This document shows positions 1 through 63,812 of a DNA stretch of 64,000 bases, one piece after another (position 1 is the first letter of the stretch; each line of letters begins with the position of its first letter). The notes under the pieces were generated by a model, which searched no databases, was not told the origin of the DNA, and saw only the letters and a list, made by a program, of their open reading frames with translations. The translations under genes were made by a program, and so were the position numbers. Location: the IMG/VR virus record IMGVR_UViG_3300009149_000011, positions 1-64,000 of that record, one strand, 5' to 3'. Source of the DNA: a virus.

Positions 1-12
1 CGTTATAAAACA

Positions 13-228
13 TTAGAGAAGCATACTTTCTAATATTTCTATTTCTATATAATTTTTAGTTGTAAGTTCTTTTAATGATAAACCACCAGTTGATTTCATC
101 CACACTTTCTTACCATTATTAAATTCACTTAACCATTCTTTCTCTTTATATAAGTCAAACAACTTACTTTTAATATTTTTTTCAATTCTATCCACAATAA
201 ACGTTTTATAACAAAGTGTAAAAACCAT
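13..228 (-). CDS. hypothetical protein (cassette-borne)
   Basis: 71-aa ORF whose start lies inside an attC-like hairpin. Confidence 0.6.
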   Translation of the reverse strand: MVFTLCYKTFIVDRIEKNIKSKLFDLYKEKEWLSEFNNGKKVWMKSTGGLSLKELTTKNYIEIEILESMLL

Positions 229-371
229 TTTGTTCGTGGTTCTAATTAACTTTGTTTGGTTATTATTTAATTTATATTTTTAATTTAGTTCAGTTTCAAA
301 ACGGTTCTTACACAGACCGTTGTGCTTCATTAAAACGCCACTTCGTTAAGCACAACACAGAATATAAATAA

Positions 372-581
372 TTAAATTTTTCCGTCTGCAAATTCACATT
401 TAATATTTGTGTGCTTTTCAAGTTCACCCTCCCAAGCATTGAGGTCGCTTAGTGTATAGCCATCAATACCCCTTTGATTTCTATCTTGTTTTTGTAATAT
501 TCTTTTACCGTCTCTTATTAAGTTAAGCAACCTCGCAACTTCGTGAGGGTTTGTAATTTCAATTAAAGTTCTTGTTTTCAT
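372..581 (-). CDS. hypothetical protein lying inside the loop of an attC-like site
   Basis: 69-aa ORF between the hairpin arms at ~348-370 and ~598-623. Confidence 0.65.
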   Translation of the reverse strand: MKTRTLIEITNPHEVARLLNLIRDGKRILQKQDRNQRGIDGYTLSDLNAWEGELEKHTNIKCEFADGKI

Positions 582-614
582 AATCCAAAATTTAAAAATT
601 CATATTCTAATTCG

Positions 615-917
615 TTATAGCACATACATACCAAGTACCTGCCTAATCATATCGTCAGTGTGTTTGATTATTTCCGCTATATGCTTCATCTGTTCTTCGT
701 CTGAACACCGCAGCATTTGTTTTGCCACTTCTTTTTTATAAGCCAATATTTCTTTTAGGCTTTCAGTTGTCTTTTCAATATCCATTGATGCTGCTACGTG
801 CAATGAATTAAGTTCACCTATCCTTGTTGCCATCGTTGCATTATCCGCATCAGAAGTACGTGCCATAACATTATGTATAGCACATTGCTGTAATCGTTTC
901 AATCTAAGGTCTTCCAT
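615..917 (-). CDS. hypothetical coiled-coil protein (cassette-borne)
   Basis: 100 aa; stop TAA is the TTA of the GTTATAG core site. Confidence 0.65.
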   Translation of the reverse strand: MEDLRLKRLQQCAIHNVMARTSDADNATMATRIGELNSLHVAASMDIEKTTESLKEILAYKKEVAKQMLRCSDEEQMKHIAEIIKHTDDMIRQVLGMYVL

Positions 918-978
918 AATCTATAAAGTTTGTGTTTCAAATTAAAGTCATCGTTGGCAACGTGCCATACACGAGCCG

Positions 979-1185
979 TTATAGCCAATTAAAATAAATG
1001 GCAGTTTTCACAAATACAATAGAGCCTCCAACCATAGTTACAAACCAATACCAAAGTCCATATAATTTGTTTTTTAGTTGTTTGTTAGAAGCCCAAATAA
1101 TACCAATAAAGGGTAAAAAACTGGCTATAACACCACCTATATGTAATGCCTTGTTTCCTTTTTGGTTATTCTGTTCTTTATCCAT
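979..1185 (-). CDS. small membrane protein (cassette-borne)
   Basis: Two hydrophobic segments; stop lies in the GTTATAG core. Confidence 0.65.
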   Translation of the reverse strand: MDKEQNNQKGNKALHIGGVIASFLPFIGIIWASNKQLKNKLYGLWYWFVTMVGGSIVFVKTAIYFNWL

Positions 1186-1437
1186 TGTTTTAGTATTTAC
1201 TTGTTAGTGTAGTAATTTATCAAGGTCGGCACTACACATAGCCAAACCATTGTGCTTAATATGGGCTACATCAGTTCTTCGTAGGAACATTTTCGGGAGC
1301 CTTATTTTTTTGCCAACGCTCAATTAACTTACGGATTTCAGTTTCACATAAGTTCTTTCTGCTTCTACCATCATCACTTGCAATTTGGTCAAGTGTTTCG
1401 GTTTCATCTTCTGTTAGGTGTATTTCAATTCGTTTCA

Positions 1438-1755
1438 TTAATCAATCATTTTTATAGATGAATATGCGATATTCCAAACTTCACCGTTTTCTCTTTTACA
1501 TTTTACTTTTTTAGGGTTAAGCTTTAAAACCTCCCATATTTCACCATTAAATTTGTCGGCAGTAACAGAAACTATATCTCCAACTTTTAAATCGGTTCTT
1601 GCTTTTTCCTTTCGCTCTAATTTAGCTTGGTGCTCTTTTTCACGAATGAGTCTATTAGCATCAGCAATCACTTTATTCAGTTCATATAATGATAATCCAG
1701 TTAAGTCTATTTTACTTTCTGTGTTTATTGTTGCAAGTTCTTGTAGTAAATTCAT
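1438..1755 (-). CDS. coiled-coil plus KOW/SH3-like small protein
   Basis: LKVGDIVSV...WEVLKLNPKKVKC beta-barrel pattern; own promoter motif at 1786-1810. Confidence 0.65.
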   Translation of the reverse strand: MNLLQELATINTESKIDLTGLSLYELNKVIADANRLIREKEHQAKLERKEKARTDLKVGDIVSVTADKFNGEIWEVLKLNPKKVKCKRENGEVWNIAYSSIKMID

Positions 1756-1971
1756 GTCTTTTTGTTTTAGTGTTACAATTAATTATACGACAAACTTACG
1801 ATAAAGTTTCGTAACCACCAAATTTATTTTACAACACTCTAAAAAATAAGGAGGAAAGGTTCGTGCTTCGTAGGTAGTTTATCGGTTCAAACCGCCCATA
1901 CTAAAGCACAACAACACCTAAAAAGCATACCCTACGGGATACGCATTTTAGCCAAACCGTTGTAAGTAATA

Positions 1972-2205
1972 CTACGTTAGTGCTATTCCGTTCATAAACG
2001 GTTTACCATCTATATAATACCTTACTTTGGTTTTGTCATAAGGTTTAATTTCGGTATAGTCTACCCACCCCTTTTGATTTATATTATGAGTTCCACCACT
2101 CCAATCGCCTTGTATTTCTACGGTTGTTTTTCTGATTCCAACCACTTCAAAAGGGGATGCATCTGCTTTATGGTAAACCTTGTCACCTAATTTAAAATTG
2201 TGCAT
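1972..2205 (-). CDS. hypothetical protein, SH3-like (FKLGDKV)
   Basis: 77-aa ORF filling one cassette. Confidence 0.6.
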   Translation of the reverse strand: MHNFKLGDKVYHKADASPFEVVGIRKTTVEIQGDWSGGTHNINQKGWVDYTEIKPYDKTKVRYYIDGKPFMNGIALT

Positions 2206-2300
2206 ATATATATTATTTTAGTTATTAAATCCGTACTACTTACAACACGTAATATAGTTAACCCTATCGGGTCGCTATCGCTTAACCATATTGCCATACG

Positions 2301-2453
2301 TTATAAAAAATTAAGCGTAAACCAATCTCTTATTCTTATAAAGAATCTCCACCGTTTTCTAACCTCAACTTTTTTAATCCAAGCCTTAGCTCTTTTGTCT
2401 GTGTGTGGTACAAATTCAAAACCCTCACGTTTACATATTTCTTTTATATCCAT
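2301..2453 (-). CDS. 50-aa hypothetical protein (not in ORF track)
   Basis: ATG at 2453 reads MDIKEICKREG...WFTLNFL; stop in the GTTATAA core at 2301-2303. Confidence 0.5.
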   Translation of the reverse strand: MDIKEICKREGFEFVPHTDKRAKAWIKKVEVRKRWRFFIRIRDWFTLNFL

Positions 2454-2583
2454 ATCACATTTTATAACAAGGTTTATAAAGTAATTAGGCGGTTAAACTA
2501 CGTGGGTTTATTAATCTCAACTTACTCTTACCAATGCACTGGTGTGAGAAACTAAGCGCGCCTAAATACTTATACACTTAACA

Positions 2584-2907
2584 TCATAAACAATAAAGCG
2601 TACGTTCTTCAATTGGTATATTGTTTTTAGTTGCGTATTCTTTAGCGTAAATCATCCCTTTGCTGTATCCATAATCAATATAAAATATATGCTTTTCAGC
2701 TACTTCTTTCCATATAAGACCAGCATCAATACCCCATTTTCTTTCGTGAGGTATATCATCATTTAAAATACCTTCTTGGGTATAAAGTAAATGGCTTGCT
2801 ATAGGCGCTTCCCCTTTGCTTAAGCTATCCCTTACGCATTCCCTAGCGTACTTTATGTTTCTTTCGATATCTCCAGCGTATGGGCTTTCTAATATTACTC
2901 TTATCAT
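2584..2907 (-). CDS. conserved phage protein, nucleoside 2-deoxyribosyltransferase-like fold
   Basis: VILESPYAG...GEAPIASHLLYTQ...SKGM motif pattern. Confidence 0.6.
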   Translation of the reverse strand: MIRVILESPYAGDIERNIKYARECVRDSLSKGEAPIASHLLYTQEGILNDDIPHERKWGIDAGLIWKEVAEKHIFYIDYGYSKGMIYAKEYATKNNIPIEERTLYCL

Positions 2908-2963
2908 AATTATAATTTAAAGTTTATAACACTATGCAAAACTCAATTAAAAAAGCGAATACA

Positions 2964-3320
2964 TTATCCAAAATGAACCATCTTTCGCTTTTTAATGGCA
3001 TCATTGCACCCATCAATGAATTTATCTATCATTTCAATGAAATCGAAATCACGCCCCTTTGAGTTATCAAAATTTTCTTTAATTGAGGTTAGTCCTTTCA
3101 CAATTCTCTTGCACTCTTTTATTGTGAGTCTACCATCACAATCTGAATGATTAATTAACGGCATTATGTCGTGATCTAAGTCTTTAGCGAACCCTTTATT
3201 CCCCCCGTATTCTTTTAGTTCGTTTATATCTATATCTATTTGCAAACATAAAGACTTCCTAAATCTTGCGAAAGTACTATAAGGTCCATTGAAACATCCA
3301 AATGTTGTATCTAATCCCAT
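2964..3320 (-). CDS. conserved phage protein (MGLD...HSDCDG family), paralog of 5762-6238
   Basis: Shares Y..F..FR..L and HSD.DG motifs with 5762-6238. Confidence 0.65.
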   Translation of the reverse strand: MGLDTTFGCFNGPYSTFARFRKSLCLQIDIDINELKEYGGNKGFAKDLDHDIMPLINHSDCDGRLTIKECKRIVKGLTSIKENFDNSKGRDFDFIEMIDKFIDGCNDAIKKRKMVHFG

Positions 3321-3411
3321 AATTTTTTGTTATTGTTAATTATACCGTAATAATGCTAACACAAAACATAAAGCCATGCTTCGAAACGCCTTATATTTTT
3401 TATAATTAGCA

Positions 3412-3642
3412 TTAACTCAGTGAGTCAAATCCTACAAATTCCTTAATTCTGTTTAATTCCTCTTCTAAATTATCAGCACGTTCATTTGAGCAACTGCTAA
3501 AATTATGCATAGGTAATGTATTTGCTACGCCCCTGCTTTCAATGAAGCTTTTTACCATTTCGAAAATTCTTATTTCATTTGCTCCACTATCGAAGATGTG
3601 CTTTATCTCCATTCTTAACTGCTCTTTTTCTATATCGTTCAT
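3412..3642 (-). CDS. hypothetical protein
   Basis: 76-aa ORF in the co-oriented array. Confidence 0.55.
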   Translation of the reverse strand: MNDIEKEQLRMEIKHIFDSGANEIRIFEMVKSFIESRGVANTLPMHNFSSCSNERADNLEEELNRIKEFVGFDSLS

Positions 3643-3854
3643 AATTCTGCGGTTTTAAACTTTAAATAAAATACCCACGCACCTATCATTAGCAAACACT
3701 AAACTCATCGTGTGAAAAAACTAAGACCTCCAAAACCAATTGCCTTTTATGTGATTTCTATCTTCTGGATAAAATTGTGGACTATCAAAAGCAATCCACC
3801 ATAGTTCTAGTTTCCAAATATAAAATCTTCTTTGCGCTACACTTACCTCCATAT

Positions 3855-4280
3855 CTATTCCGTTTTATAAATCTTAATGGTATACTTATCGCCTTCTTTA
3901 ATCTGAAATTCACTATCTATATCCGTCCAAATCTTAACTCCCCCATGCTCTATTGTCATTAATCCTGGACATTCTTCCCAAAACTCTTCACCTTCACCTT
4001 CAAACTCATAACAAATTTTAGAATCATTTAAAGATAGCTTTTTCTTCATTAACTCCATAGCCCATACAGCTCCTCCAATGAAAGTTGCTTTAGTATCTTC
4101 AAAATCTCTTTTGTTATTGCAATTTGCAAAAGATACGGCTTCATCAAAAATTTCCTGTTTACTTATAGTTTCTGGTTCTATTTCAGATTTACACACAATC
4201 CTTCCGCATTCTTTGCAGAAAGGGATTATGTTTTTTTCAAAAGAAACATTAGGCTTAATACATTTACAAGGTATCGTCAT
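3855..4280 (-). CDS. hypothetical protein with N-terminal CxC/CxxC motifs
   Basis: CKC...CKEC; co-oriented. Confidence 0.6.
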   Translation of the reverse strand: MTIPCKCIKPNVSFEKNIIPFCKECGRIVCKSEIEPETISKQEIFDEAVSFANCNNKRDFEDTKATFIGGAVWAMELMKKKLSLNDSKICYEFEGEGEEFWEECPGLMTIEHGGVKIWTDIDSEFQIKEGDKYTIKIYKTE

Positions 4281-4319
4281 GTTATTTCATGTATGTGTAA
4301 ACTTTTTCTAAATCGATTA

Positions 4320-4523
4320 TCATTTGTTCAAACCTAAATCTTTAGTAGATTCAGCTTTCTTCAACTTTTCATATTCCATGATAGCAGACTTAAGTATAGT
4401 TCTACAAGTTAAATCTCCAAAAACAGTGTTTCCGTCTTTATGTTTCAATTCAATTGGATCATCACCAACAACGGTCCACCCAATTGACTGTAAAGCCTTT
4501 TTATCTTCTTTTAACAATTTCAT
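4320..4523 (-). CDS. hypothetical protein, related to N-terminus of 7931-8287
   Basis: GW....dP.El.H.DG motif shared with 7931-8287. Confidence 0.6.
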   Translation of the reverse strand: MKLLKEDKKALQSIGWTVVGDDPIELKHKDGNTVFGDLTCRTILKSAIMEYEKLKKAESTKDLGLNK

Positions 4524-4529
4524 AGTTTA

Positions 4530-4799
4530 TTAATAACAACGATTATAATTTAACCAATTATACCAATAGTGATACCCGCTTCTCCAGACATAAACCCATC
4601 TGTTACCATTCCATACATAAACATAGTGACCACCGTATTCAGAGTGCCAATAGGCTCTCTGACAAAAGCATCCATTACACCTATCTGAAATACTATATTG
4701 TTGACTGTAATAACTGCCTGATGAGAATCCGCTCTGAGCTTTAGTTTCGATGCTCATAATTCCTATGAGCAACAAACAAGTTAATATAAATTTTTTCAC
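4530..4799 (-). CDS. secreted Trp/Tyr-rich small protein
   Basis: Signal peptide ending KAQ; aromatic-rich C-terminus. Confidence 0.6.
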   Translation of the reverse strand: MKKFILTCLLLIGIMSIETKAQSGFSSGSYYSQQYSISDRCNGCFCQRAYWHSEYGGHYVYVWNGNRWVYVWRSGYHYWYNWLNYNRCY

Positions 4800-4836
4800 T
4801 ATATTAACTTAAACATTTAACTAATAAAAGACAAAT

Positions 4837-5373
4837 TTATCTTTCCATAAACACCTCTTCTCTTTCAATGTTTTCAATAGACTCAATGTTTGATCTTTTC
4901 ATCTTTCTAACCAGTATATTTGATTCATTCCTACAATGCCCAACTCTATAGTCTCCAGCCGTAACTCTAAAAGTTATTTCACCATCTCCATTAACAATAA
5001 ACCCGCCATCATTGAATGGCACATCTATATCTGGGCCTCCTACAAGACCATCATAATAAATGTTCTCTAATTCTATTTCATCTTTTTCCTCTGCGCCTTT
5101 AAGTATTTGATCATACTCTTCATTAGAAAGTTCTCTAGCCCCTCTCCATCTAGAGCAAACGTTCTTACTAATGTTTTTATCGTATCTATCGAATAATACC
5201 CAATGATATGTTACGGACCACACTAAGCTGTCATCATCCTTTTCAAAAACCTTACCGCTTCTAACTTCAAAGTCATTCTCTTCAATCTTCTTTCTTAGAT
5301 CTGCGGCTCTGGTCTCTAAATCAAGTCGATCAACCCTTAATTGATCTAATTCTTTTTGTAATTGGTCTTTCAT
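4837..5373 (-). CDS. hypothetical protein
   Basis: 178-aa ORF, N-terminal coiled coil. Confidence 0.65.
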   Translation of the reverse strand: MKDQLQKELDQLRVDRLDLETRAADLRKKIEENDFEVRSGKVFEKDDDSLVWSVTYHWVLFDRYDKNISKNVCSRWRGARELSNEEYDQILKGAEEKDEIELENIYYDGLVGGPDIDVPFNDGGFIVNGDGEITFRVTAGDYRVGHCRNESNILVRKMKRSNIESIENIEREEVFMER

Positions 5374-5466
5374 TACTTGATTTATCTTTAAATATTATTA
5401 TTTTATTAGATTCAATGCCTCTTGAAAAAATCTTATCTAATTGTTTGAAGTTTGTTTTAATTTTTT

Positions 5467-5760
5467 TCATAACACAGTTTCCCCTATTGATTCCACCATC
5501 TCTTCCACTTGTTTAATAACTTCAGGCTTTCTAAAACGAGAAGCACAAAACCCTGGCTCTACACCCTTAAGAACTCCATCGGTAAATGGTTTGTTAGTAA
5601 TTTCTACTAATAACAATCTACCTCTACTATCCCAACTTTCCACTCTACGAACAGTGTATTCCTGACCCTTTCTTGGAAGTTGATCAAAATGAGCTATCAT
5701 AACATCCACCATATCGGTGAAGTCATCATCAATACATATAACTTTATCCCCTACTTTCAT
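5467..5760 (-). CDS. hypothetical protein (KVGDKVICID family)
   Basis: Typical phage SH3-like pattern ending F...RF. Confidence 0.65.
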   Translation of the reverse strand: MKVGDKVICIDDDFTDMVDVMIAHFDQLPRKGQEYTVRRVESWDSRGRLLLVEITNKPFTDGVLKGVEPGFCASRFRKPEVIKQVEEMVESIGETVL

Positions 5761-5761
5761 A

Positions 5762-6238
5762 TTAACAAAATTCTAATTCTTCTCCTGCTTCAGCAGCTTC
5801 ATCCATAGCATCAGCTAAAGATAAAGCTCTTTTTTTATCAAAATCATCTTCTGACCAGTCGGCAACTAACTCCCTTAATCTAGGAGCAGTGTCTACACAT
5901 TGAATAACTGTTAGACTATCTTCTGCATCAGAGTGGTATAACAGATTCTTTATAGGATCTTTTATTTTATCCCAACTCATAGGTTTGTGACAAACCATTT
6001 CAGACATGTTTTTATATTTATAGGCACCTACAAAAGAGCTGCCTTTCGCTTCCAAAATTTTAATCACAGCGTCTTGTGCTTGCTGCAAAGCTGATTTGCT
6101 ATGAAGTAAAACATCTTCTTGAGTAAATCCTTCCATCTGATCGATGTTGATACCTATATCTCTTGCAAGCTTTCTTCTAAAGTGACGAAATCCTCCATAG
6201 CTCCAGCTAACATCTCCATGACTAAATCCTAATCCCAT
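5762..6238 (-). CDS. conserved phage protein, paralog of 2964-3320
   Basis: SYGGFRHFRRKLA...LLYHSDAED. Confidence 0.65.
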   Translation of the reverse strand: MGLGFSHGDVSWSYGGFRHFRRKLARDIGINIDQMEGFTQEDVLLHSKSALQQAQDAVIKILEAKGSSFVGAYKYKNMSEMVCHKPMSWDKIKDPIKNLLYHSDAEDSLTVIQCVDTAPRLRELVADWSEDDFDKKRALSLADAMDEAAEAGEELEFC

Positions 6239-6240
6239 AA

Positions 6241-7281
6241 TTATTGCTTTAATAGTTTATCTAAATGTTCTTTAACCGTTTCTAAACTTGTTGGTTCCGT
6301 TGGAGTATAATCTACCGACTGCTTAGGGTTTTTACTTAACCTGGTAACTCCAAGTTGAAACTCATGCCACATCGGTGTTACATCACTAATTAACATCACA
6401 TGAGTATTACAAGCCCAAGATAGCCACGACAATCCAGAACTTACACCAATAAACAAAACAGACTCTTCAATCTGACTAATTCTATCTATCAAACTTATGT
6501 TGCCAGTCAAATCAATAACACGTTCCAATTCAGTAGGTTCTTTTGAAATAACAGCTACCTCAAAACCAAGAGAGCGGATATGATCAACAACCTTTTGCCA
6601 ACCGCCTTCTTCTTTCCAACCTTTCTTAGCATCACTAGCATGCTCTGATATACATACGACTTTTACCTTATCTTTGTTGCTCGATGTGCTCAGTTTAGTT
6701 TTTATTTCTTTATAATCAAGACCTAAAATACTAGAAGCCACCATTTGTAAAGGAACCTTTGAGCTATTTACTGGTGAATAAATAGAATTACCTTCTTCAT
6801 TAGCGCCAACATAATATTGGGCATATAAATTTTCTATTTCCGTATTAGGCTTTACGAAAACTATATCGGGATAAGCTCTGCTAAATATGCCATTAAAAAA
6901 TGTTGAACATATTACTTTGCAATTATGCTTTTTCCTAAACTCTTCTATATATGGCATCCATGCTATATTATCCCCAAGAGCAAATGCATCTATTTTAATT
7001 GAAACAATTTTATTTGTTGCATTAAAATGATCTATAAACACTATTTTTCCAGCTTTGTTGTTAATTCTTATCTTCCAATTTGTAAACCACTGCCTAGCCC
7101 CTAAGATCATATCGCCAGTCTCACACTCTCCAGAAAAAACTACGTTACCATTGTCATTGTTAATAAAATCAACGTCATAAATATCATCTTGTCCAGATTT
7201 AATCATAACTCTTGGACAATTACCTTGTATAGGTAAATTGCAAACATATGACACCTCTACTTCTATCATAATTCTATTCAT
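6241..7281 (-). CDS. autotransporter O-heptosyltransferase-like (Aah/TibC, GT9-like) glycosyltransferase
   Basis: ALGDNIAWMPYIEEFRKKHNCKVICSTF and FIGVSSGLSWLSWA motifs. Confidence 0.8.
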   Translation of the reverse strand: MNRIMIEVEVSYVCNLPIQGNCPRVMIKSGQDDIYDVDFINNDNGNVVFSGECETGDMILGARQWFTNWKIRINNKAGKIVFIDHFNATNKIVSIKIDAFALGDNIAWMPYIEEFRKKHNCKVICSTFFNGIFSRAYPDIVFVKPNTEIENLYAQYYVGANEEGNSIYSPVNSSKVPLQMVASSILGLDYKEIKTKLSTSSNKDKVKVVCISEHASDAKKGWKEEGGWQKVVDHIRSLGFEVAVISKEPTELERVIDLTGNISLIDRISQIEESVLFIGVSSGLSWLSWACNTHVMLISDVTPMWHEFQLGVTRLSKNPKQSVDYTPTEPTSLETVKEHLDKLLKQ

Positions 7282-7741
7282 CTACGTAAATTGTCTCTTC
7301 GAACCCTCTACCACCTCTTCTTTTGTTAAAGCTAAGAACTTGCTTACCAGCCTCTTCAAATGATTCACAATCAAACTCAACACCGTCAATACTTAAAATG
7401 CGACCACCTGGATTATAAAAACAAGAAACCATATCACCCATTCCTCCTACATTAATTAAAAACATGTCACCACCAGTACCGTCAGCATAAACACTTCTAA
7501 TGTTCCAATTTAAAGGTTTGCACCTAAGCATATTCATACCATTGCTGGTCGTAAATCTTTCATAATTATAAACGCTAAAACCCCCCTTAGATGTTGTGTT
7601 ATTTATTTCACTATTCACTTCTGGAGAAAGTTTTTTCAAAGCTTCCTTTGGAACATCACCCCATTCGACAACTTCCATAAATTCTAAAGCGAACTCATTA
7701 GTCAAATCAATTGTGATCGGTATCGTAACTATATTACTCAT
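7274..7741 (-). CDS. hypothetical protein
   Basis: 155 aa, overlaps neighbours. Confidence 0.6.
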   Translation of the reverse strand: MSNIVTIPITIDLTNEFALEFMEVVEWGDVPKEALKKLSPEVNSEINNTTSKGGFSVYNYERFTTSNGMNMLRCKPLNWNIRSVYADGTGGDMFLINVGGMGDMVSCFYNPGGRILSIDGVEFDCESFEEAGKQVLSFNKRRGGRGFEETIYVDE

Positions 7742-7947
7742 TAAGAAGATATTTTGACTCCTTTGTTTAGCTCTGTTATTGCCTCTTGAACGTCTTTAGG
7801 GGTTATTGAGTATTTTCTACAAGTTTCGAATTTATGTATCACTTTCTTATTCAACCAAATGCTTACAACTTTTCCGTATAAACCTGACGATACGGTCCAA
7901 GCATACTCTACACCATCAACCGTTATATCTCTATGCTTCTTCTTCAT
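7741..7947 (-). CDS. hypothetical protein
   Basis: RDITVDGVEYAW...ITPKDV pattern. Confidence 0.6.
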   Translation of the reverse strand: MKKKHRDITVDGVEYAWTVSSGLYGKVVSIWLNKKVIHKFETCRKYSITPKDVQEAITELNKGVKISS

Positions 7948-8287
7948 AATGTTCTAATAATTCTTTTGCTAGTTCTCGACATTTCCCAAGTAGAAAGTCG
8001 GTTTCTTTAATATGATGTTTTTTAAACTCTTCAAGCTCAACTTGGGGGAATCTCCTAAATCTACTTTGGCTTTCATCAAACTTTTTAACCTTTATCCAGC
8101 TGTTCGTGTTGATTATTTCCCTTAATCGTTCTCTTACCTTAAACGATTCACTATTCTCTTCTTCAAGATGATCATATAATATTATAGCCGCGTATCCGCT
8201 GGCAAAAGATCCATCCTCATGACGAATCTCTAAAGGAGATTCACATTCAATCTCCCACCCTAAATCCTTTAACAAAGCTTCATTCAT
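7931..8287 (-). CDS. hypothetical protein
   Basis: 118 aa, overlaps neighbours. Confidence 0.6.
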   Translation of the reverse strand: MNEALLKDLGWEIECESPLEIRHEDGSFASGYAAIILYDHLEEENSESFKVRERLREIINTNSWIKVKKFDESQSRFRRFPQVELEEFKKHHIKETDFLLGKCRELAKELLEHYEEEA

Positions 8288-62254: not shown

Positions 62255-62265
62255 TTTAAAGTTAG

Positions 62266-62338
62266 AGGGAGTGATGGGGCTCGAACCCACGACCACGGTG
62301 TTAGAGACCGCTGTTCTAACCAGCTGAACTACACTCCC
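62266..62338 (-). tRNA. amber suppressor tRNA(CTA), Trp-like body
   Basis: GGGAGTG/CACTCCC acceptor, GCGGT CT CTA AC ACCGT, GTGGG-TTCGAGC-CCCAT; own promoter motif 62351-62375. Confidence 0.88.
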
Positions 62339-63649: not shown

Positions 63650-63655
63650 AACTTG

Positions 63656-63733
63656 AGCTCCTGGAAGGGATCGAACCTCCGAACTTTCTAAACCTTGCGG
63701 GGTTTAGCGCTTATACCAACCAGCCACAGGAGC
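63656..63733 (-). tRNA. atypical tRNA, extended anticodon arm with loop CCGCAA
   Basis: CTAAACC CCGCAA GGTTTAG; U73. Confidence 0.6.
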
Positions 63734-63739
63734 ATTTTG

Positions 63740-63812
63740 AGCGAAGGGGTAGAATCGAACTACCGTACTATAGGTTTGCGGACCTATCGCCTAACCACTC
63801 GGCAACCTTCGC
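63740..63812 (-). tRNA. Cys-like tRNA with 8-nt anticodon loop TCCGCAAA
   Basis: ATAGG TCCGCAAA CCTAT; U73. Confidence 0.68.

Follow-up and report, generated by a model that had tools for sequence, protein, structure and literature searches.

Integrons are regarded as bacterial, and lately also as archaeal, devices, and the single-strand chemistry on which they rely has been linked to a domain that, to our knowledge, no enzyme but the integron integrase IntI possesses. Xer-type enzymes that lack the IntI insertion can nevertheless act on duplex-mimicking hairpin DNA, as in the Xer recombination of CTX phage on folded single strands, and in the pdif modules of Acinetobacter plasmids genes are bounded by inverted Xer sites. 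Here we describe a gene array at the start of a viral contig (IMG/VR record IMGVR_UViG_3300009149_000011), of which we analysed positions 1 to 64,000, referred to below as the window. It makes up the first 64 kb of a contig of 149 kb with a CheckV completeness of 46%, on which end repeats were not found; its GC content is ~33% and nearly all of its genes lie on the minus strand. Our analysis makes it probable that window positions 1-2576 belong to an integron-like array of mobile gene cassettes and represent its distal part. Unlike the CTX and pdif systems, which use host XerCD on a fixed dif-like sequence and form no ordered arrays beside a recombinase gene of their own, this kind of array is linked in related phages to a dedicated recombinase.

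The closest published observations are those of Qi et al. (2023), who described clusters of attC sites without integrases in 17 phages (PMC9892861). These were found with bacterial attC models at 2-4 sites per phage and treated as phage-carried integron components, and IntI1 recombined five of the six phage sites tested, which have related ATAAC/GTTAT cores; such cores are present in the TJE1 and PH101 sites, and as in the window no integrase is carried on the element. A phage recombinase, an attI-like site, end complementarity and inverted gene polarity are not described there (PMC9892861). Also comparable are the promoter and stem-loop elements (PeSLs) of T4-type phages (Arbiol et al. 2010, PMC2839356), where small accessory genes in a variable region are separated by stem-loops and modular shuffling has been proposed; PeSLs differ in having conserved promoter-plus-terminator motifs and relying on homologous recombination, whereas the arrays described here have few shared bases, unit-specific ends and a linked site-specific recombinase. 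Full-text searches for phage integrons and integron-like arrays yielded no account of a recombinase-linked phage system.

Seven units occupy window positions 1-2469, each opening with C-GTT-R-T and a tail of its own and closing with the reverse complement of that tail followed by AAC-A. These core pairs had been proposed in an earlier sequence-only reading of the window, and all seven were found at the positions it gave; extended by one base to the left and three to the right they become 13-nt pairs at 1-13/201-213 (unit a), 318-330/345-357 (b), 613-625/858-870 (c), 977-989/1120-1132 (d), 1248-1260/1901-1913 (e, an ATT variant), 1958-1970/2235-2247 (f) and 2299-2311/2457-2469 (g). With A.C and C.A oppositions allowed (G.T on the minus strand), pairing is complete (13/13) in four units, and one or two true mismatches are left in each of the remaining three. 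That same reading had named end-matching no better than shuffled core pairings as grounds for abandoning it, and here the summed match of the true pairing was equalled by only 3 of 5040 permutations, all of which merely swap units that have the same core. The motif CGTTRT occurs six times in the first 2.3 kb as against 48 times in the whole 149 kb. A strict form of the unit signature is found five times in window 1-2469, and the rest of the 64 kb adds one AT-rich and one long-range pair, both chance-like; in the opposite orientation the 64 kb hold one pair. In 1.3 Mb of unrelated phage loci 9+4 strict-signature pairs were recovered, all of the AT-rich TATT/TGTT/CATT kind and none with CGTT. 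An eighth pair within the window (2299-2311/3394-3406, 11/13) was rejected as an AT-rich chance match, since it ends in AAT-T and has no junction behind it.

Six of the seven right-hand cores lead through an imperfect hairpin (arms of 12-18 bp) into the next GTT, as the sequence-only reading had proposed for every unit; after the seventh there is a hairpin without a GTT. All window junction sites have unequal spacers, the one next to GTT exceeding the one next to AAC by 2-3 nt. The layout of an attC site (R''/R' boxes, an imperfect L''/L' hairpin, unequal unpaired spacers and a variable loop) is thus present in six window sites and in 54 sites (50 distinct) of related arrays, and as in integrons each cassette begins with bases complementary to the inverse core of that cassette. 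For a canonical comparison we used a single cassette, aacA4 of pEC-IMP (a plasmid cut by insertion sequence elements), which starts GTTAGGC and whose attC starts GCCTAAC and continues with a 5-nt spacer, the hairpin, a 6-nt spacer and GTT, with the gene on the same strand. Phage arrays and integrons are alike in the order of the site, in the sense of the spacer asymmetry and, judged from relatives, in the side on which the recombinase lies, with the genes alone inverted; the claim that genes run opposite to canonical attC polarity was thereby borne out against both aacA4 and the related bacterial arrays described below. The layout is that of the aacA4 attC, yet core consensus and loop conservation depart from it: the phage core is GTT-R-T where that of integrons is GTTRRRY, the phage paired ends form 13-15 bp with two fixed wobbles, and many phage sites carry a conserved 10-nt loop. 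The window junctions themselves share only the AAC/GTT cores and a few flanking bases. An exact 15-mer from two junctions gave only scattered, chance-like single matches in IMG/VR, and an Rfam search of window 1-5000 returned no meaningful match.

The conserved loop, C-ATTAAAACG-A (window 328-338 and the arrays of loci L129-L208), was seen 92 times in one orientation and 8 times in the other, and in 75 cases it is closed by stems of at least 10 bp with many different stem sequences; attC loops of integrons are not conserved in this way. It sits either in a junction hairpin or in an otherwise empty core-to-core unit. The 'empty cassette' reported at 319-356 of the window is of the latter kind: it is indeed a core-to-core unit without a gene, and belongs to a recurrent hairpin type with the conserved loop. 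The published site P12002L_attC1 of Polaribacter phage P12002L, which had been predicted with HattCI only (PMC9892861), has the same mini-junction and conserved loop as the window family; P12002L carries units of the window type with antisense genes, and the site lies within a unit of antisense methyltransferase genes.

To look for the enzyme we made use of the 105-residue protein of unit e, which matched three IMG/VR contigs (G001, G002 and G003). Each of them encodes a PF00589 recombinase, and the gene sits right at the left end (in window orientation) of an array of this kind; in G002 the first core lies 52 nt from the recombinase start codon and the array exceeds 5 kb. A gene for a small S1 RNA-binding-domain protein directly follows the recombinase gene in G002 (L124 1962-2339). 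The sequence-only reading had invoked an integrase encoded outside the window or by the host: none is present on the 149-kb contig, and the relatives that share the cassette gene do carry one, beside the array, which is not an IntI by the accepted definition. The enzyme has 267-274 residues, a SAM_4-type N-terminal domain and the catalytic RHRH-Y residues. Among NCBIfam models it comes closest to archaeal XerA/integron-integrase and to integron-integrase, reaching the cut-off of neither (152.6 bits against the cut-off of 265 for TIGR02249), and the nearest solved structures are Pyrococcus XerA and then VchIntIA. Residues 172-210 align opposite VchIntIA 174-260, making the enzyme ~48 residues shorter at the IntI-specific insertion. 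Because it lacks this insertion it is not an IntI as defined by Cury et al. 2016 (PMC4889954).

Linkage between recombinase and array holds in a fixed orientation across the family. The recombinase protein has 109 relatives in IMG/VR, and in the 80 best loci kept from these, the 380 kb upstream of the recombinase contain 130 strict units and the 549 kb downstream contain 5, a density ~37x higher upstream, with 6 strict units in the opposite orientation. Approximately 65 loci share an attI-like motif, TATATA-rich and ending in GTTA, 40-60 nt upstream of the recombinase start codon, and right after this GTTA the sequence turns locus-specific. Forty of the 80 loci break off upstream of the recombinase gene at a distance of no more than 6 kb, few do so downstream, and ~7 of the upstream ends fall within 8 nt of a core. 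The window contig begins in the same manner, its first base lying 1 nt before a GTT. Contig breaks at cores are what an assembler produces when a population diverges from the recombination point onward. As the contig breaks inside the array, the recombinase gene of this phage would be either just off the contig or supplied in trans.

In the absence of a close backbone relative of the window phage (a search with the protein encoded at 6241-7281 gave relatives of at most 46% identity, without arrays), gain and loss of cassettes were followed in the recombinase-bearing relatives. Three contigs from three samples (L142, L153 and L154) are 97-100% identical in the recombinase region and differ in their arrays by whole cassettes. 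In L153 and L154 a 960-nt cassette (99.9% identical) occupies the first position behind the attI-like motif, and in L142 a more distant one; similarity between the sequences breaks off just ahead of the G of GTT on the left of this cassette and just past GTTA on its right. A 277-nt cassette (97.5% identical) is likewise first in L180 and internal in L142, again with borders on GTTA, in phages whose recombinase regions are only 73% identical. The attI-like motif of the relatives is thus both conserved and followed by first-position cassettes that are internal elsewhere; the window starts inside its array and holds no sequence upstream of it. The sequence-only reading would have fallen had related genomes differed by indels that do not end at GTT cores; the related phages compared differ by whole units with junctions inside GTTA.

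Cassettes are also shared with the window phage itself. The DNA of unit e is 82% identical to a unit of G001 and G002, whose regions fetched around the arrays have no other gene in common with the window genome, and the core sequence of this unit differs between the window phage and G001/G002 while being self-complementary in each. The junction J4, which precedes unit e, is 77% identical to a G001/G002 junction that leads there into a different cassette, and the similarity stops ~3 nt before the core. Among cultured phages, the difference between the Polaribacter phages Freya_1 and Freya_10 (L371-L374) is a block of 4,921 nt beside the recombinase gene; it comprises 12 small genes and is bordered by a 20-nt direct repeat beginning with the GTT core. 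The records from Freya_1 to Freya_10 form a length series in which the recombinase gene is shifted stepwise.

We then considered which strand of the site folds, using 191 units defined only by GTT-R-T and five Watson-Crick pairs, with the flanks unconstrained. The base before GTT is a C opposite A in 127 of these units and the eleventh position an A opposite C in 135, while positions 12-15 are Watson-Crick in 112-153. It is thus on the minus strand alone that the paired ends form a helix of 13-15 bp in which two G.T wobbles are fixed. The junction hairpins share this preference: of 50 sites, 37 fold better as the minus strand (p = 5e-7), and as in integrons the better-folding strand is the bottom strand relative to site polarity. 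As the phage minus strand is at the same time the mRNA strand, this folding asymmetry alone cannot separate RNA structure from bottom-strand DNA. Gene polarity offers a way to do so. Among 166 open reading frames (ORFs) of the phage arrays 149 are antisense and 17 sense to site polarity, and all window genes lie on the minus strand, whereas in arrays of related Bacteroidota genomes 60 ORFs are sense and 7 antisense. The Bacteroidota arrays adjoin a related recombinase on its downstream side. Such core-paired arrays are present in Gaetbulibacter, Polaribacter, Aquimarina and others (L291-L370, e.g. L367 8860-16500 and L323 8800-16700), in loci that may be chromosomal or prophage-borne. Because the strand asymmetry tracks the site and not the transcript in both phage and Bacteroidota arrays, the comparison favours a DNA substrate, as in integrons.

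Taken with these observations, we infer the following mechanism. Each cassette would extend from the TT of a GTT core to the G of the following core, carry one or two small minus-strand phage genes, and close in an attC-like site in which an inverse core with a terminal AAC is followed by a short spacer, then by an imperfect hairpin, and lastly by a longer spacer and GTT. The pairing of the first 13-15 cassette bases with the cassette's own inverse core would be the footprint of excision as a circle and reinsertion, with strand exchange at some position inside GTT. The likely enzyme is the 267-274-residue recombinase, related to Xer and IntI, that is encoded beside the array in relatives, its likely substrate the folded minus (bottom) strand, and new cassettes would enter at the attI-like motif upstream of its start codon. 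In the window phage the enzyme would come from a gene just beyond the contig end or act in trans. A cassette array beside a tyrosine recombinase gene and new cassettes at the recombinase-proximal site, both seen in relatives, are shared with integrons, and some phage lineages have homogeneous sites reminiscent of the Vibrio repeats of sedentary chromosomal integrons. Apart from the core and loop differences already given, what sets the phage arrays apart is the recombinase without the IntI-specific insertion, below the cut-offs of the integron-integrase models, and cassette genes that are antisense to the site and run towards the recombinase gene; the integron arrangement of promoterless cassettes oriented away from intI and read from the promoter Pc is not what is seen here.

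Several observations weigh against this interpretation. No tyrosine recombinase was found on the 149-kb contig (no PF00589 match), and no backbone relatives were found with the protein encoded at 2964-3320, so that activity in this phage is no more than presumed. Units b and e have two mismatches in 13 and the last hairpin has no GTT, which suggests that part of the array may be decaying. In the relatives the position of the crossover is resolved only to within GTTA, and the Freya indel fits site-specific exchange and equally homologous recombination or slippage. The enzyme of the relatives has PF00589 and lacks the other mark of an integron integrase, the IntI-specific insertion near patch III (intI_Cterm, I2 helix), and Escudero et al. 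2020 tie the ability to recombine single strands to the acquisition of this I2 helix (PMC7790495). Finally P12002L_attC1, the sole published site of exactly the type seen here, is the one site that IntI1 did not recombine (PMC9892861).

These points bear most directly on a reading in which the array is an orphan, that is, a cluster of attC sites lacking an integron integrase (CALIN): it would have been laid down by site-specific recombination in a phage without a recombinase, and would now be a decaying relic or be moved in trans by a co-infecting phage or by the related recombinase of a Bacteroidota host. In its literal form (at least two attC sites, no integron integrase nearby) this description suits the contig, which has 6-7 sites, judged by their structure, and no PF00589 match in 149 kb, on a contig truncated at the array. 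The two imperfect units and the terminal hairpin without GTT are in keeping with it, as are the published phage CALINs without integrases (PMC9892861) and the Bacteroidota genomes that hold related recombinases with arrays. Since the contig has a completeness of 46% and opens right at a core, since the relatives' recombinase lies at that same end where half of the related contigs break within the array, and since four or five of the seven units still pair fully, we hold an orphan array to be possible and on the whole doubtful. Quite improbable, by comparison with it, is a role of the stems and hairpins at the level of the minus-strand transcript, for example in how each small mRNA is processed, stabilised or terminated, in place of one as recombination sites. 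Nearly all non-Watson-Crick positions of the phage sites are G.U-compatible on the transcribed strand and start codons lie inside hairpins, as such elements would have it; yet in the arrays of related Bacteroidota genomes it is the antisense strand of the genes that is wobble-compatible, the cassettes move as DNA with borders at GTTA, the position and orientation of the sites are fixed beside the recombinase gene, and window 1-5000 matches no Rfam family. The stems may still have a secondary role in RNA alongside recombination.

Shuffling might also proceed by homologous recombination between conserved promoter or stem-loop motifs that separate the small genes, as proposed for T4-type phages. 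The setting of small ORFan genes with stem-loops between them in a hyperplastic region resembles that of PeSLs, the 20-nt direct repeat around the Freya indel is of the sort such exchange would use, and the homogeneous 46-nt junctions of some lineages could support it. The window, on the other hand, has a common motif of no more than 5-6 nt and junctions that are unlike one another, so that a conserved composite promoter-terminator motif long enough for homologous exchange is lacking; nor would homologous exchange predict end complementarity specific to each unit, and PeSLs are not known to be inserted at an attI-like motif free of junctions or to be linked to a recombinase. We accordingly give this explanation as little credence as the transcript-level one. 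At the far end of the scale, we see hardly any prospect that the pairs are chance inverted repeats or miniature transposons with terminal inverted repeats. A GC content of 33% does allow AT-rich TATT-type chance pairs, which do occur, and the permutation test, the control loci and the orientation control all reject chance; for transposons, the repeat sequence is each unit's own, and neither a transposase nor target duplications are present. We thus return to an integron-like array of mobile cassettes, for which the pairing test, the recombinase linkage, the whole-unit differences and the site polarity all argue, and which the sequence-only reading had put forward.

The phage family is widespread, with its 109 recombinase relatives and the 130 strict cassette units counted in 80 loci, and combines the cassette logic of integrons with a recombinase that has no IntI domain and with inverted genes. 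On balance we incline, with some reserve, to the broader view that large Bacteroidota phages run an integron analogue of their own: a compact Xer-type recombinase would act on folded single-stranded sites without the I2 helix, on a cassette pool of their own that is antisense to the sites (sense in host arrays) and exchanged between otherwise unrelated phages. The window would show the distal part of one such array, and the ORFan cassettes could be a store of accessory, possibly counter-defence, functions. If the enzyme works as we suppose, it would represent a second and simpler solution to hairpin-site recombination, a turnover mechanism for the small ORFan genes of large phages, and a direct route of gene exchange between phage arrays, possibly also with the arrays of Bacteroidota hosts. 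Nor would an 'integrase' in such phages then have to mean lysogeny, which has been assumed for cultured flavobacterial phages, in which the gene for a related enzyme of 37% identity was read as a sign of lysogeny (PMC8776804).

The array packs eight small minus-strand genes, two of them in a single unit, into the first 2.6 kb of the window (units and junctions are given below on the plus strand, and all genes lie on the minus strand). Unit a (1-213) is paired at 13/13 with 2 wobbles; its gene (13-228) encodes 71 residues with no family match and has a weak homolog in another phage array (L135). Junction J1 (210-321) consists of AAC, a 2-nt spacer, arms at 215-232/297-314, a 4-nt spacer and GTT. 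The 'empty' hairpin unit b (318-357) has the ATTAAAACG loop motif at 329-337 and is followed by J2 (354-616), whose 22-nt arms (359-380/587-608, 86%) enclose the whole of gene b (372-581, 69 residues), in agreement with the earlier description of a complete gene within an attC loop. Unit c (613-870; 13/13, 3 wobbles) carries a gene for 100 residues (615-917) and leads into J3 (867-980; arms 871-888/957-974), and unit d (977-1132; 13/13, 2 wobbles) a gene for a hydrophobic 68-residue protein (979-1185) and leads into J4 (1129-1251; arms 1133-1150/1228-1245). The starts of genes c and d, at 917 and 1185, do lie in the loops of J3 and J4 as had been noticed, while a third start assigned to such a loop, at 228, lies in the hairpin arm. 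The use of the core TTA as stop codon was seen as described, at 615, 979 and 2301 (genes c, d and g).

Unit e (1248-1913) is a two-gene cassette that encodes a protein of 105 residues (e1, 1438-1755), with protein identities of 91% in the G001/G002 arrays and 68% in that of G003, and then a 55-residue ribbon-helix-helix protein (e2, 1271-1438; Arc/CopG-like), which gave the single match obtained for cassette proteins in Pfam and PHROGs. The two genes overlap and the pair is kept in the arrays of three other phages; by analogy with integron arrays, it could be toxin-antitoxin-like or regulatory. J5 (1910-1961) is only 52 nt long (arms 1918-1932/1937-1951), with a fold z of -3.7 on the minus strand and -1.1 on the plus strand. 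Unit f (1958-2247) shares its 13-nt left core with G002 and with Polaribacter phage P12002L, and its gene (1972-2205, 77 residues) has a weak homolog in another array (L139). After the 59-nt J6 (2244-2302; arms 2249-2261/2282-2294) comes unit g (2299-2469; 12/13) with a gene for 50 residues (2301-2453), and the terminal hairpin (2474-2576) follows the last inverse core as the distal end of the array.

The sequence-only reading had extended the array from 2 to 3420; it runs to ~2576, and the two genes at 2584-3420 are ordinary and lack core pairs. The one next to the array (2584-2907) encodes a DUF7768/nucleoside 2-deoxyribosyltransferase-like protein, and its DNA is 74-79% identical over ~120 nt to genes of enterobacterial jumbo phages (Serratia BF, Erwinia and Cronobacter phages). 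A DNA search of window 1-8000 against cultured phages matched only this gene and two genes at 5830-7089, with no match to the array. Lastly, at the far end of the window (62265-62338 and 63655-63812) ARAGORN calls an amber-suppressor-type tRNA (anticodon CTA), together with two tRNA-like genes to which it assigns a four-base anticodon.

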